A stretch of 64,000 nucleotides of DNA from an uncultured Alphaproteobacteria bacterium. Its GTDB lineage: Bacteria > Pseudomonadota > Alphaproteobacteria > Rs-D84. Positions 50,962-61,308 of this stretch are shown in pieces (positions within the stretch are counted from its first letter, which is position 1; every line of letters begins with the position of its first letter). The DNA is taken from positions 1,532-65,531 of the forward strand of contig CALXLG010000005.1 of NCBI GenBank assembly GCA_944389135.1, read 5' to 3'. Both the position numbers and the translations under genes were made by a program. Under the pieces are notes generated by a model. It was given only the letters and a program-made list of their open reading frames with translations. It made no database searches and was not told where the DNA came from.

Positions 50962-51228
50962 ATGGACAAGATAATTACTGAATATGAGATAGAATATTTT
51001 GAAAATTTATATCCTGACAGAACAAATACTTGCCCTTATGATAAGAGTTTGTGCCTTAGAAAAGAATTACGCAAACAAAAATGGAAAAAACACATATCTG
51101 ATATAGCAATAAAACAGCAAAATATAATGTTTTTTACTTCTGAAGATATGTTTGATATATGTCCATATCAAAAACCTGAAATGTGCAACAGGTACGTTTA
51201 TTGGAAAAACAATGGTAAAATCAGATAA
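50962..51228 (+). CDS. Small Cys-containing hypothetical protein
   Basis: 88 aa, CPY...C twice; overlaps the rimM start. Confidence 0.65.
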   Translation: MDKIITEYEIEYFENLYPDRTNTCPYDKSLCLRKELRKQKWKKHISDIAIKQQNIMFFTSEDMFDICPYQKPEMCNRYVYWKNNGKIR

Positions 51229-51688: not shown

Positions 51689-52045
51689 ATGTCAAAAAAG
51701 TTAAAGCTTACACATGTTACCCCTAAAACATTTGTTTTAGAAACAAAAGACCTCGTTTTTATTCCAAATCAACCAACTATAAAAAAAGCAACAAATGAAA
51801 GATATTGCTGTTGTGTTCATGTTTGTAGTCAATTTTTGGAATATCCAGTAGATAAATGGGGGCGTAGAATAATTCCTAGCAGTGCGATATGTCCACATGT
51901 AAAAACTTTGCAAGGATATCCAATGCACTGTACAGGGGATTTTGTGTATAAAGAATCTAAAGACGGCAAGAAGTTTGTTGATTCAATAAACAATAGAATT
52001 AGGGCTTTATATAAGATTGTTATGTATTCTAAGGAACGTGATTAA
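51689..52045 (+). CDS. Small Cys/His-containing hypothetical protein
   Basis: 118 aa filling the rimM-trmD gap; YCCCVHVC, CPH, HC. Confidence 0.65.
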   Translation: MSKKLKLTHVTPKTFVLETKDLVFIPNQPTIKKATNERYCCCVHVCSQFLEYPVDKWGRRIIPSSAICPHVKTLQGYPMHCTGDFVYKESKDGKKFVDSINNRIRALYKIVMYSKERD

Positions 52046-53139: not shown

Positions 53140-53165
53140 TAAAAACCCGCTTGTGCGGGTTTTTT
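53140..53165. terminator. Bidirectional terminator
   Basis: aaaaacccgc-ttgt-gcgggttttt. Confidence 0.82.
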
Positions 53166-53166
53166 G

Positions 53167-53712
53167 TTAAAAATTTATGGTGTACCCCATGCCTATAAAA
53201 TTCTGCCCAGAATTTGATTCTGTTAACGTGCCGTTTGAAAAATGTCTTATGAATATTTCAATCGCGTTTTTTTGTGAAATGTGCAACCCGACGAAAATCT
53301 TTTGACCGAATGTAAATTTAGAACTGATTCTGTCCGTCGTTGCTGATTTTATGTATGCGCCAAGGGACGCGCCTGTATAGAATTTGTCGTTGGCGTATAA
53401 TACGACGTCTTCTGATATACCAAGAATAATATGTTGGTTATATTTACTAAATGCACCTATGCCTTGGGCGGTTAGTACTTCAATGTTTTGCCTGCCGTCC
53501 AAACCGAAAAAAGTGTTCCCTTGGCTATATTGAATTTCAAAAACATATAAGTTTTCCAGTTTGTCGCGCAGGGATACGCCTGGATACAAAGATACTTGGT
53601 GCTTTTTGTCATTAAACAGTGTATTAGTTGTTGCTTTTGATTGAAAGGTTGTAAAAATTAAGACAAATATTGATAAAATTATAATGAGCATTATGTTCCA
53701 TATTTTGTTCAT
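53167..53712 (-). CDS. PagL-like outer-membrane acyloxyacyl hydrolase (lipid A deacylase family)
   Basis: Signal peptide, beta-strand pattern, RHFSNG..N.G.NF motif, terminal Phe. Confidence 0.75.
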   Translation of the reverse strand: MNKIWNIMLIIILSIFVLIFTTFQSKATTNTLFNDKKHQVSLYPGVSLRDKLENLYVFEIQYSQGNTFFGLDGRQNIEVLTAQGIGAFSKYNQHIILGISEDVVLYANDKFYTGASLGAYIKSATTDRISSKFTFGQKIFVGLHISQKNAIEIFIRHFSNGTLTESNSGQNFIGMGYTINF

Positions 53713-53732
53713 ACCGAAACTCCTTACTTGAT

Positions 53733-54263
53733 TTAAAATGTTGTATTAAAATGTACGTTTATTGATTGTGCGTCGGCACTGATGTTTACGTTTGTTCGTT
53801 TGCTTACAAATATCCATGTCATAGCGCTGCTGATTGCGGCGCCGGCAAGTACGTCGTGCAGGTGGTGTTTGTTTGCGTAAATTCTTGAAAAGCCCGTAAA
53901 TGACGCTAATAAGTAAGGTACGATGGCTTGCTTTAATCCGTATCTTTTATGTATAAACGTTGCACCTGAAAACGCGGCGGCGGTATGTCCGCTGGGGAAA
54001 GAGTTATCATCGCTTTTATCGGGGCGTTCTTCTTTTATTAACGTTTTTAATCCCAATACAGTAGTTTCCATTGCCAGAAAAGATACGGAAAATTCCATCG
54101 CGCCACACCAGTCTGTTTCGTTCATTGCCATGCCGAAAGCGTATGCGGGAACTATGACCTGCATATAGTCGCCGATTTCTTCTATGCCGGGGCCGGCATA
54201 GGTCGGAATACAATGCTGTGAAACGACAAACAAGACGGCTGTCGCTTTATAAAAGTTTTTCAT
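53733..54263 (-). CDS. PAP2 phosphatase, LpxE-like
   Basis: K...RP, SFPSGH, SRIYANKHHLHD; true ATG at 54263 with SD aagga. Confidence 0.85.
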   Translation of the reverse strand: MKNFYKATAVLFVVSQHCIPTYAGPGIEEIGDYMQVIVPAYAFGMAMNETDWCGAMEFSVSFLAMETTVLGLKTLIKEERPDKSDDNSFPSGHTAAAFSGATFIHKRYGLKQAIVPYLLASFTGFSRIYANKHHLHDVLAGAAISSAMTWIFVSKRTNVNISADAQSINVHFNTTF

Positions 54264-54462
54264 TGTAATATCCTTTTGATTAAAAAAACACCCACTGAAA
54301 GTAGGTGTCGGGAAGTTAATCAGTCTGATATTACAAAGACCTCGTCGCTTTCCCTGTTCGGTATTGTATGGCAAACGACTTCCCGACTTTTATATATCGG
54401 GACCGAAAGTGTCAATAATGCATTTCTGCATCAGTAATATCAGGGTGATTAAGCCCCTTTAT
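54264..54462 (-). promoter_or_regulatory. Riboswitch-like leader with terminator and RBS-sequestering hairpin (possibly chrB-a/b-like orphan motif)
   Basis: GGGGCTTAATCACCCT...TTCGGTCCCG..CGGGAAGTCGTTT followed by mutually exclusive pairings and a 9-bp terminator with U-tract. Confidence 0.7.
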
Positions 54463-54616
54463 CTACTAACAGTATGCTGACCCTATTTTTATATAGGGAT
54501 AATATTAATATAAACTTTTTATCGGTTTAGTCAATTTTATTGTGTAATCTTTTTTTTTACATTGTGTGACATTTAACAATTTGACATTGCTTGGTGGCGA
54601 GGATAATATATGTTGT

Positions 54617-57105: not shown

Positions 57106-58107
57106 CTATTTAACTTTGGACATGGCGTTGTTTTTCAGCGCCGTGTTTGCTTTTAAATTACCTTCTAAAATTACTTTTTGTTTGGCTTTTTCAAATTTTT
57201 TTGACCCTTCAATTTTTTCAAGATAATTTTTTATTTTTGTTATGTCGTTTCTTATTAATGTTATACGAATTTGCGGAACCAATTTCGGATTTTTCAAAAA
57301 TTCTATCGCAGACGATTTAAAGTTATATAATGCTGTTCGCATATCTTTTACATTTTGTGAAGATTTTATATTAACATTTTGCTTTTTGGGCAGTTTTTCG
57401 TATTCTTTTATTAGTCTGTCTATGTCCAGCCAACCAAGTCTGGCTAAATCTACATTAAACATATAATCTGCATTTTGATATTTTGAATCTGCAAAATCTA
57501 TTACAGATAAAGTTTTTGTTTCTTTATTAAAGAAAATATTATTTTCATTCATATCGCCATGAGAAAACACAACGCTTGCATCATTGTCTGACGTAACATC
57601 AAACCAGTCTTTCGCTTGGCGAACAATCGTTAGTTCTTCTGAAGGGATGTGTTCTTGTAGCTTTAATAAAACTTCACCAAGAGTCATATCTTTTTCGCCC
57701 GATACCGCATCAAAAAAATCTTTTTGTTTAAGTACGGGTCTTGATTGGTTTATATCATTTAAGAAATTTGCAAAACTCTTATAAATAATATCAAGCTCTT
57801 TCGGTTCCAAGGATTCTACGAATGAAGTTTTTAGCGGTGTGCCGACAACACGTTCTTCTTCAACAATAAAATCTTCGTCATATATTTTTAAAGTGCGTGG
57901 TATTTTATATGTTGAATTATTGAATTTTAATACCCCGTCAGAAACGGATTTAGCAATCTTTTGTTTACCTAACCATGTTTGTAATCTTTGTTTGTTATTG
58001 TTTGAAACAGGGGCTTTTATCACTTTTTTGCCATCTTTGGATAAATAGACTAATGTTTCTCTGGGTGCATTAGTATTTATTAGTTGCAAATTTGTAAGGT
58101 TTTGCAT
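57106..58107 (-). CDS. APH/choline-kinase-like phosphotransferase
   Basis: VIK, SHGDMNENNIF (Brenner motif), VIDFAD. Confidence 0.8.
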   Translation of the reverse strand: MQNLTNLQLINTNAPRETLVYLSKDGKKVIKAPVSNNNKQRLQTWLGKQKIAKSVSDGVLKFNNSTYKIPRTLKIYDEDFIVEEERVVGTPLKTSFVESLEPKELDIIYKSFANFLNDINQSRPVLKQKDFFDAVSGEKDMTLGEVLLKLQEHIPSEELTIVRQAKDWFDVTSDNDASVVFSHGDMNENNIFFNKETKTLSVIDFADSKYQNADYMFNVDLARLGWLDIDRLIKEYEKLPKKQNVNIKSSQNVKDMRTALYNFKSSAIEFLKNPKLVPQIRITLIRNDITKIKNYLEKIEGSKKFEKAKQKVILEGNLKANTALKNNAMSKVK

Positions 58108-59445: not shown

Positions 59446-60234
59446 ATGAAGTCGGTATTAGTATTTGTATTATTATGTTTTTTTACAATTAATTATGCAG
59501 AAGGTGCTTGTGTAGATGGATTGTGTCAAACAGGAAAAGTTGAATGTAAAGCCTTTGACGAAGCGGGTTCATACGCTAAGGTCATTAATAATTGTAACAT
59601 TTCTGGCGTAAATATAAAGCCCAATGATATAATTTGTGGCTGTGGCGAAGTTAAGACAGGTGAAGCACTAAGACTCTGGGGGGGGACGGTTTGTTCCTCC
59701 TTCCTCCCTTGTACATATGCTCGTGTTTGTGCAAAGGGCTATTATGGTTATCCGTATAATAGTGGTTGTTATCGGTGCTCTGACGGCGGAACGACAAATG
59801 GCGCTGGCGCAACAGAAGTATATAATTGTTATAAGATAATAGAAAAAGATACACCCGATGGACATGGAAGACGACAAGAAAAGTGTTATTTTCAAATAGG
59901 CTACCAAGCTGGTTATACAAATTGTGTAGAGGAAGATGAATACCCCAAAGTAATTAGTTGCAAGGCCGGATATTATTCTACAAACGGTCAATGTCAAGAA
60001 GTCGGATATAAATATTATAGTCCAGAGGGAGATTTAACAGCGACCCTATGTCCATCTTATAAAAAGGGAAGTTTAACAGTAAGTGGAACGACAGCCACAA
60101 CCACTTCTGCATCTATAACAGATTGTATGGTTCCTGCGTATATTGATAATGACCCTGCTAAAGGAAAGGAAACATTTACAGATTACAAAGGTACGTATTA
60201 TTTCCCAAATAACTGCTGGCATCCAGACAACTAA
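59446..60234 (+). CDS. Secreted Cys-rich protein
   Basis: Signal peptide; CAKGYYG, CKAGYY, YYSP...C, SITDC. Confidence 0.85.
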   Translation: MKSVLVFVLLCFFTINYAEGACVDGLCQTGKVECKAFDEAGSYAKVINNCNISGVNIKPNDIICGCGEVKTGEALRLWGGTVCSSFLPCTYARVCAKGYYGYPYNSGCYRCSDGGTTNGAGATEVYNCYKIIEKDTPDGHGRRQEKCYFQIGYQAGYTNCVEEDEYPKVISCKAGYYSTNGQCQEVGYKYYSPEGDLTATLCPSYKKGSLTVSGTTATTTSASITDCMVPAYIDNDPAKGKETFTDYKGTYYFPNNCWHPDN

Positions 60235-60458
60235 AAAGTGTCTTTTGAATTATTAAAAACTCGTATTTTATTTATGGGTATTCTATTTGTTTTTTGTCTG
60301 GGGCTTTGATAACATAAATTTTGCATCCAGACCTAAAAACATATAACGATTGTGTTTATTAAAGATATAAATTATACTTATAAATGAATCCAAAGGGATA
60401 TTGGGTTCGGGGTCGTTATGTCTGATTAGTGGTTTATTTTTAACAAAACGGGGAAAAT

Positions 60459-61308
60459 ATGAAAAAGGGTCTTTTCGGGTGTTTGTTTTTATGTTCGCTT
60501 GTTGTTCAAAAAAGTTATGCCGCTTGTCAGTTATCGTATAATCCTAACTATTCTGGCTGTAATGGCCCTGCGGTTGTTACATCTGGTACAGGAACCTGCT
60601 CTTTTGGTAATAAAAGCGTTCCGGCAGGTTCTTATATTTGCGGAGAAACATGGTGCACAAATTCAGCTAATACAATATTTGTTGCGCAATCTATTAGTAT
60701 GACAAACAAAAAGTTCTATTGTGTGTGCAAGTCTGGATATTATGGTGATGTTTCTACTGGTAACGATTCTAGTTGTACAGCATGCCCAAGTGGTGGTACT
60801 TCTAGTGCAACTAATGGGGCCTTGTTAAATCCAGTTATTACAAATACAGAAGAAAGCGACTGTTATTCAAGTACTGAAAAAGACGTTAGTTATGGAACTT
60901 CTACAAAAAAATGTTATTGGAGTAACGCGTTTGTAAGCACAAGAATATGTGAAGGCAATATATGCAAGAACTATGCCAGTTCTTCATATAAACCAGCTTG
61001 TTGCTATGGAGATTATAATGTCAGTTGTACAGAAACATTAAAAACTTGTGATGCTGGATATTACCGTGCTTCGTCTTCTGACTTATATTGTAGTGCGGTT
61101 GGTAGTGAATATTACAGTTCAAATGGTTCGTTATCAAGAACCAGGTGCCCCAACATATACAAACCCATCTGGTGGTACCAGTTATGGTAAAACCACCGGC
61201 AGTGGAACGGGCGCCGATGCAATAACAGATTGCAAACTGCCAAATACAGAGGTTTTTTCTGAGACATCAGGCAGTTTTGTATTTGAAAATTGTTATTACG
61301 TACAGTGA
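60459..61308 (+). pseudogene. Secreted Cys-rich paralog interrupted by a +1 frameshift near 61148-61151
   Basis: Removing one C from TGCCCCAAC joins ...RTRC to PTYTNPSGG...AITDC...ENCYYVQ, matching the C-terminus of 59446-60234. Confidence 0.75.

Follow-up and report, generated by a model that had tools for sequence, protein, structure and literature searches.

The window, the 64-kb stretch of DNA analyzed here, comes from the 0.99-Mb genome of a gut bacterium and contains the gene for RNase P RNA. On its minus strand, a leader of about 240 nt lies 5′ of a gene for a PAP2 phosphatase, which is followed by a PagL-family gene (Table 1). All three PAP2 motifs are intact in the phosphatase, and LpxE was the best of four PAP2 models in NCBIfam, at 39.5 bits against an equivalog cut-off of 177. 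The PagL-family protein has a His-x-Ser-Asn motif; the third position of its triad is presumably Asn, not Glu, and a PDB sequence search with this protein gave a chance match alone (E of 0.22). Because lpxC and lpxK are encoded in the genome, lipid A is a plausible substrate of the PAP2 protein. The two gene products are probable lipid A-editing enzymes.

The two genes are adjacent in this genome and in two sister species (G286 and G287), all of them close, in a search that ran one exact a1b1 pattern over 328 genomes and is blind to pairs with other codes. A conserved PAP2-PagL pair was rejected: no PagL match lay within ~1.5 kb of any of 17 other close PAP2 loci (L036-L052), and none of 20 PagL loci contained a PAP2 match. 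At none of the 20 PagL loci was the RNA cassette described below the direct leader of PagL, two weak matches being on the opposite strand or downstream. Of 121 genomes of the genus, 119 carry PagL-family genes, frequently more than one (four in this genome), and close homologues of the window PAP2 are patchy across it. Elsewhere in the window, small Cys-containing ORFs (50962-51228 and 51689-52045) are inserted in the rpsP-rimM-trmD-rplS operon, and a 333-aa ORF (57106-58107) with kinase-like HGD..N and DF motifs looks, by eye, phosphotransferase-like.

Table 1. Features of the leader and its genes, in window coordinates
Feature	Position	Strand	Remarks
Probable bidirectional terminator	53141..53165		GC-rich hairpin with A/T-run flanks, between converging pagL and rplS; absent from the terminator scan list
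PagL-family lipid A deacylase-like protein, 181 aa	53167..53712	-	PF09411, 44.4 bits against a cut-off of 23
PAP2 phosphatase, 176 aa	53733..54263	-	PF01569, 63.7 bits, above the Pfam cut-off
b2 site	54272-54263	-	GAUAUUACAA; ends on the A of AUG; a2/b2 overlap the end of the SD
a2 site	54283-54277	-	Second UUAAUCA copy
Intrinsic terminator and 7-U tract	54282..54309	-	9-10 bp stem (54309-54287); its base shares 54309-54307 with the P1 3′ strand
C4-like three-stem RNA, sRNA-Xcc1 type	54299..54387	-	Rfam RF02221 match and own covariance model
Switch strand	54336-54307	-	Sequence exactly as in the first-pass annotation
a′ antisense segment	54316..54322	-	Junction ahead of the P1 3′ strand
b′ antisense segment	54325..54336	-	Within the switch strand
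P1 helix	54387-54379 with 54315-54307	-	Stem of the C4-like RNA
GUCGGGAAGU	54387-54378	-	Located as first annotated; overlaps the P1 5′ strand
Anti-P1 strand	54396..54402	-	UCCCGAU; pairs with 54387-54381 and sequesters the P1 5′ strand
a1b1 domain (c4-a1b1/IsrK-like position)	54411..54470	-	Closed by a helix of 54470-54463 with 54418-54411; contains the a1 hairpin and another one
b1 site	54434..54443	-	CUGAUAUUAC, 10-nt complement of b′
a1 hairpin	54457-54442	-	8-nt loop, closed by G-run/C-run
a1 site	54446..54452	-	UUAAUCA, inside the a1 hairpin loop; complement of a′
5′ hairpin	54481..54498	-	By eye, comparable hairpins before the leader in several PAP2 relatives
Sigma70-like promoter candidate	54507..54534	-	Consensus match only, 10/12, 16-nt spacer; implies a start at ~54500

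The 5′ end of the leader is predicted at ~54500, further upstream than 54462; sites like the promoter candidate in Table 1 occur at chance level (6 found, 6.5 expected). Folded as a 241-nt version, the leader is more stable than its shuffles (z = -4.87; none of 200 as good). Its segments are ordered as target (a1/b1), antisense (b′/a′), and again target (a2/b2, over the start codon). When at most one mismatch was allowed, a genome-wide search found sites for this code only at the three places within this leader, and when the 41 nt on the downstream side were shuffled 200,000 times, the split a2/b2 match arose once. The a1b1 domain folds in isolation at -15.6 kcal/mol. In the C4-like RNA, the P2 arm bears a conserved internal loop and the P3 loop contains b′; these arms were taken from alignments, and single-sequence MFE folds draw the interior differently. 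The leader is almost unchanged in contigs of two runs from one study, perhaps the source sample, which has no bearing on transcription. In one contig (run X1, depth of ~2) the terminator U-tract (54282-54288) has an extra base, reflecting either an error or tract-length variation.

A first-pass annotation had described this leader as riboswitch-like, with an OFF and an ON fold. Each of the pairings and segments it listed could be located on the minus strand, and its general picture, a two-state leader with competing helices and a terminator ahead of the PAP2 and PagL-family genes, is supported. Its OFF fold was said to bury the AAGGA Shine-Dalgarno sequence (SD) and the A of AUG; the A does lie in the b2 helix, but only the last two bases of AAGGA (54272-54271) do, and the SD is ~60% unpaired in that fold. 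The accompanying ON/OFF scheme holds in that upstream a1b1 pairing leaves the start codon free in read-through RNA. However, its ON fold needs a1/b1 pairing and P1 together, a conceivable pseudoknot that the folding program cannot score, and in nested folds the two are mutually exclusive (P1 at 0.0 when a1:a′ is at 0.98).

The sole credible Rfam match at the leader is sRNA-Xcc1 (RF02221), which covers 54299-54387 at 40.9 bits, below its gathering cut-off of 53; the match is full-length (model positions 1-87, E of 4e-6 to 1.5e-5) and includes P1 and the P2 loop motif. This model has five matches in this genome and is present in 25 of 61 related genomes (this one counted), exceeding the cut-off in one of the 61, at locus L006. 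Our own covariance model, built from 27 cassette copies, gave 91.6 bits at the window copy, whose sequence is part of the seed. With it, this genome gave 14 matches; of 101 genomes of the genus, 100 gave one or more, with numbers from 1 to at least 35 per genome and a total of at least ~1,300. A cassette accompanies 10 of the 17 close PAP2 homologues from other genomes and each of the three encoded here; these cassettes fall into two families and two subtypes. In this genome, the remaining two close PAP2 paralogues (G000:C1:195509-196194 and C1:207954-208632; L004 and L065) each have one with a different code and no a2/b2. Most cassette copies examined lie within ~45 nt of an SD and start codon. 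The cassette of L006 precedes a gene for a Rha phage regulator (PF09669, 112.7 bits), and others precede genes for an HTH protein and for many proteins with signal-peptide-like starts. One leader, L107, is identical to that of the window in 169 of 202 aligned columns (84%), with the same a/b code bar one G-U; it is without a2/b2 and precedes an unrelated Cys-rich protein with a signal-peptide-like start.

The surroundings of individual copies vary. At L007:1501-2651, a cassette lies 5′ of a gene for an EcoRI-type adenine methyltransferase (PF13651, 402 bits), and two cassettes fall inside a 2.6-kb span, on opposite strands, at L107:1041-1155 and 2199-2314. Three tandem units of the second subtype (G000:C4:75811-76394; L076-L078) have their own leaders, different a/b codes and no intervening ORF; in a tandem pair of the same subtype (G000:C3:48265-48542; L074-L075), the second unit is without its own a1b1 and matches the first unit's leader. 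At L005:1501-2215 (G000:C11), a cassette and an unannotated 194-aa gene sit beside an ORF that by eye is serine-recombinase-like, an arrangement that suggests an integrated element. Within the window, neighboring Cys-rich proteins with signal-peptide-like starts are encoded at 59446-61308; similar ones follow many cassettes in relatives. Exact patterns, of limited reach, gave no match in viral contigs to the window code or the PAP2-clade pattern; a generic cassette pattern was found in two viral contigs, before genes that are not antirepressor-like. Of two metagenome scans, the first gave no matches and the second, a looser one, two PAP2 loci.

How does this RNA relate to known systems? The comparisons that follow draw on the accessible parts of the papers cited. 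The Rfam model for C4 antisense RNA (RF01695) had no matches at E ≤ 1 in the genome and none in 16 + 7 related loci, and that for c4-a1b1 (RF03163) had none at the leader and two weak fragments elsewhere in the genome. Formal membership in either family was rejected, there being no credible match at the locus or in the genome; homology therefore rests on layout, and we speak of a C4-like RNA, not of a member. The c4 RNA of phages P1 and P7 has three stems, is cut by RNase P at P1, and pairs with its targets through a′/b′ (PMC5320573). The window, similarly, has a three-stem RNA, a′/b′, an a1 in a hairpin loop followed by b1, and a2/b2 over the ribosome site, and the relative at L006 precedes a Rha gene. 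To the eye, the window a1 hairpin has the shape of the final hairpin in the c4-a1b1 alignment of PMC2864571. Unlike c4, in which P2 is a plain tetraloop hairpin, the window RNA has an extra internal loop in P2, and it has a strong overlapping terminator and a conserved anti-P1 strand. Also, c4 controls a phage antirepressor operon, whereas the window genes, PAP2 and PagL, are envelope genes, and most copies of the family are without a2/b2.

With sRNA-Xcc1, the window RNA shares the P1/P2/P3 layout and the P2 loop motif. That RNA, mapped as an 88-nt species (PMC2996969) and matched in the window below its cut-off, is described as a trans-acting sRNA of Xanthomonas integrons; it is listed as trans-acting and lying 5′ of symE or a phage ORF6N gene (PMC12189769, 10.1101/2020.03.17.996009, 10.1101/2025.06.18.660453), and Xylella is reported to have seven copies, five in a cluster. 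The accessible sections of the literature on sRNA-Xcc1 contained no a1b1/a2b2 sites, anti-P1 strand or cis role. The P4 CI RNA (seqA/seqC) and the Gifsy-1 IsrK-orf45-anrP system resemble the window in having complementary sites on both sides of a processed RNA and exclusive folds, and they act in trans on their own transcript. However, processed CI promotes termination and IsrK, the a1b1 half, is a trans-activator of translation (PMC4825925), whereas the predicted gate in the window is a terminator 3′ of the C4-like RNA, and the leader has no isrK match. Group 1 C4-like sRNAs of Acinetobacter baumannii are likewise multicopy and chromosomal, with variable a′ loops and apparent processing at P1, but they are read as trans-acting, and self-matching leaders or control of downstream genes are not described in the accessible text of that study (PMC5320573).

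The specificity of the cassettes was examined in 45 copies, 34 among the RF02221-matched loci and 11 PAP2 leaders, by scoring each a′/b′ against all 45 upstream and all 45 downstream regions. L050, flagged by the stem finder and not by the covariance model, was left out of the counts, and L104 and L106, which repeat sequences already counted, were not counted again. Upstream, the own region ranked first in 21 copies and among the top three in 36 (misses include L032, L016 and L028). Pairing averaged -18.2 kcal/mol with the own region versus -11.6 kcal/mol with others, a difference seen in 0 of 10,000 permutations; downstream, the own region ranked first in 4 of 45 (the window, L006, L013 and L047; 6 of 10,000 permutations), and since the copies are related and several are near-duplicates, both permutation counts overstate significance. 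Of the 14 copies in this genome, 12 show a preference for their own leader. The Rha copy, L006, ranked first for both its upstream and downstream sites. The window a2/b2 form a perfect 7 + 10-nt site (-17.8 kcal/mol, rank 1 of 45); they are retained in G286 and G287, which are so close that retention says little, and in 12 other PAP2 leaders tested, a2/b2 ranked first only in L047, weakly, and not first in 11.

Across 11 aligned PAP2 leaders and 20 named pairs, 90.9% of cells were paired, with 17 two-sided changes, a level that none of 500 shuffles attained; slid controls were 25 to 45% paired. Three rows of this alignment are misregistered by one base, the additional pair types did not exceed shuffles (39 of 500), and near-duplicate copies make these counts, too, look more independent than they are. 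The segments first annotated as an aptamer are thus not conserved but are variable address sequences that covary with their partner strand.

Elements that would link pairing to termination also recur across the 45 copies. The anti-P1 strand pairs with the P1 5′ arm at a mean of -12.3 kcal/mol, versus -6.1 kcal/mol for a control window, and the upstream duplex runs on into the P1 3′ strand in 41 copies. With P1 formed, the terminator is weaker by at least 1.5 kcal/mol in 42 copies (means of -11.2 versus -4.3 kcal/mol); in the window copy, a 7-bp upper terminator hairpin persists. For the window copy, folding of the free transcript gives a1:a′, b1:b′ and anti-P1 pairing at 0.98 to 1.0 and P1 at 0.0. 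A block of a1b1 lifts P1 from 0.0 to 0.96 while the terminator is still untranscribed, and P1 stands at 0.81 at the U-tract; in an RNA starting at 54387, P1 folds at 0.97. Over the family, on the pre-terminator transcript, the same block raises the number of copies with P1 above 0.5 from 3 to 20 of 45, with no flip in 25. At equilibrium with the terminator included, even under an a1b1 block P1 passes 0.5 in no more than 4 of 45 copies. The base of the terminator remains paired in 34 to 36 of 45 (36 with the block). Since P1 rarely wins at equilibrium on terminator-containing transcripts, the switch needs kinetics. In the free fold of 54500-54280 the terminator forms at only ~0.24, owing to competition from a long-range helix with the 5′ region; the local hairpin would probably win kinetically over that helix.

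We propose that the leader is a domesticated phage-type antisense cassette (C4/CI-like, of the sRNA-Xcc1 subtype) that acts as an attenuator gated by RNA-RNA pairing and not by a small ligand, a reading to which we assign a probability of about 0.68. That it is a C4-like cassette is very likely, and pairing-gated cis control of the downstream genes is likely. The specific direction, trans-activation with positive feedback, is a tentative outcome of the modeling that falls somewhat short of an even chance. By sequence comparison, a1/b1 match their own a′/b′, the anti-P1 strand competes with P1, and the terminator base overlaps the P1 3′ strand. RNA-RNA pairing is the most likely gate because in the predicted folds a1/b1 pairing sits in the terminated state and an a1/b1 block favors the antiterminator-like P1.

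We imagine that in the nascent RNA alone, as the folding suggests, a1b1 would pair with a′b′ and the anti-P1 strand with the P1 5′ strand. This would free the terminator base, so that transcription would mostly stop at ~54282 and the genes would be OFF by default. If a1b1 were occupied in trans by an RNA of the same a′/b′ code, the simplest candidate being the cassette's own processed product of 85 to 105 nt, P1 could fold before the terminator is made; its formation would shorten the terminator and favor read-through. P1 may also make a tRNA-like substrate that RNase P would cut, releasing more small RNA. In the window copy, the retained a2/b2 would in addition restrain PAP2 translation from read-through transcripts, in the manner of the phage system. 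Several observations weigh against this proposal: the known relatives point other ways, as CI promotes termination and IsrK trans-activates (PMC4825925, accessible part); P1 seldom wins at equilibrium once the terminator is present; more than half of the copies (25 of 45) did not flip; the 7-bp hairpin remains with P1; a2/b2 are weak family-wide; and the Rfam C4 and c4-a1b1 models do not match.

Under classic c4 logic, the processed RNA would bind a2/b2 in trans and silence PAP2-PagL, with a1b1 as a decoy that relieves repression. The perfect a2/b2 site retained in two sister species fits this, as does the window read-through RNA, in which a1b1 and a2b2 compete almost evenly for a′b′ (0.51 versus 0.46 to 0.48). 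But the poor ranking of a2/b2 in nearly all other PAP2 leaders tested and their absence from L107 argue against it, and retention between close species is weakly informative. We consider this account doubtful, and it is in any case compatible with the pairing-gated attenuator. It is distinctly unlikely that the cassette serves chiefly as a gene for a small RNA, expressed from a promoter of its own, in which a1b1 controls only processing of its own RNA and the terminator is constitutive; its fixed leak-through would make it a portable expression damper, or it would belong to an anti-phage RNA bank repressing matching phage antirepressors. The tandem units at C4:75811-76394, whose codes differ and which have no intervening ORF, the clustered copies reported for Xylella, and the terminator base that stays paired at equilibrium in 34 to 36 of 45 copies would suit such a gene, and anti-phage or trans-acting roles have been discussed for host C4-like RNAs (PMC5320573, in the text accessible). 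However, the anti-P1 strand and the terminator overlap, kept family-wide, would be needless for a constitutive terminator, most copies examined sit close to an SD and start codon, and the exact-pattern searches, limited in reach, found no viral contig with the window code or PAP2-clade pattern.

One can also envision that the conserved P2 internal loop binds an ion, a metabolite or a protein that stabilizes P1. In alignment A1 its bases hardly vary, the leader resembles a riboswitch in its terminator/antiterminator architecture, and one common signal could suit many surface genes. Yet three PAP2 orthologue leaders (L036, L043 and L049) have a short capping loop in its place, the second subtype has a shortened version, the genes that follow are unrelated (they encode Rha, HTH and secreted proteins and an EcoRI-type methylase), and copy-specific codes would have no role; we regard such gating as very improbable. 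The first-pass annotation had favored a cation as ligand, which is not supported, and kinship with chrB-a and chrB-b, which are likewise structured alphaproteobacterial 5′ leaders without a known ligand. The chrB RNAs, however, are reported to lie upstream of chromate-resistance genes, with no binding shown in the accessible part of the report (PMC5737381), and an Rfam scan of the leader gave no chrB-a/b match at E up to 10. The ykoK and yybP-ykoY families, which it had also named for checking, gave none either; no riboswitch family reached its gathering cut-off over the window or matched the leader at E up to 10. A ligand-binding riboswitch was rejected on the loss of the P2 core loop, the unrelated downstream genes and the missing family match. 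The leader is a real folded RNA but probably not a ligand-sensing riboswitch; it is more likely one copy among many of a self-pairing cassette that stands ahead of surface and accessory genes in this bacterium.

The further idea of a switch dedicated to lipid A, in a role like that of PhoPQ, is not supported, given the near-identical L107 leader in front of an unrelated Cys-rich protein. The link to lipid A is probably genuine but local, this being a single application of a general module and not a dedicated sensor in place of PhoPQ. The locus contributes a tie to a clade of PAP2 genes whose paralogues have codes of their own, together with an intact a2/b2 site, which is rare. In the open literature accessible to us, with subscription papers mostly outside it, we found no link between sRNA-Xcc1 and c4-type pairing and no leader RNA switch on lipid A enzymes.

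The leader is a real, conserved regulatory RNA, very likely of the C4/CI kind, and the riboswitch reading is rejected. If its pairing works as proposed, the orphan family sRNA-Xcc1 would gain a concrete mechanism, and a gut bacterium with a 1-Mb genome would have put a phage antisense immunity RNA to new use in the cis regulation of its envelope genes. The mechanism is testable by simple code swaps because a natural set of orthogonal a/b codes exists. More speculatively, and on balance unlikely, a phage immunity RNA may have given rise, across the genus, to a set of switches that are orthogonal, need no protein and address themselves, in each of which the cassette's own processed RNA sustains the ON state. 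In that case, loss of a2/b2 and gain of a strong terminator would have inverted the phage logic. Surface genes could vary heritably between ON and OFF without DNA change, or be switched on by a matching phage RNA, and with three PAP2 paralogues of different codes, individual cells could differ in their combination of lipid A edits.
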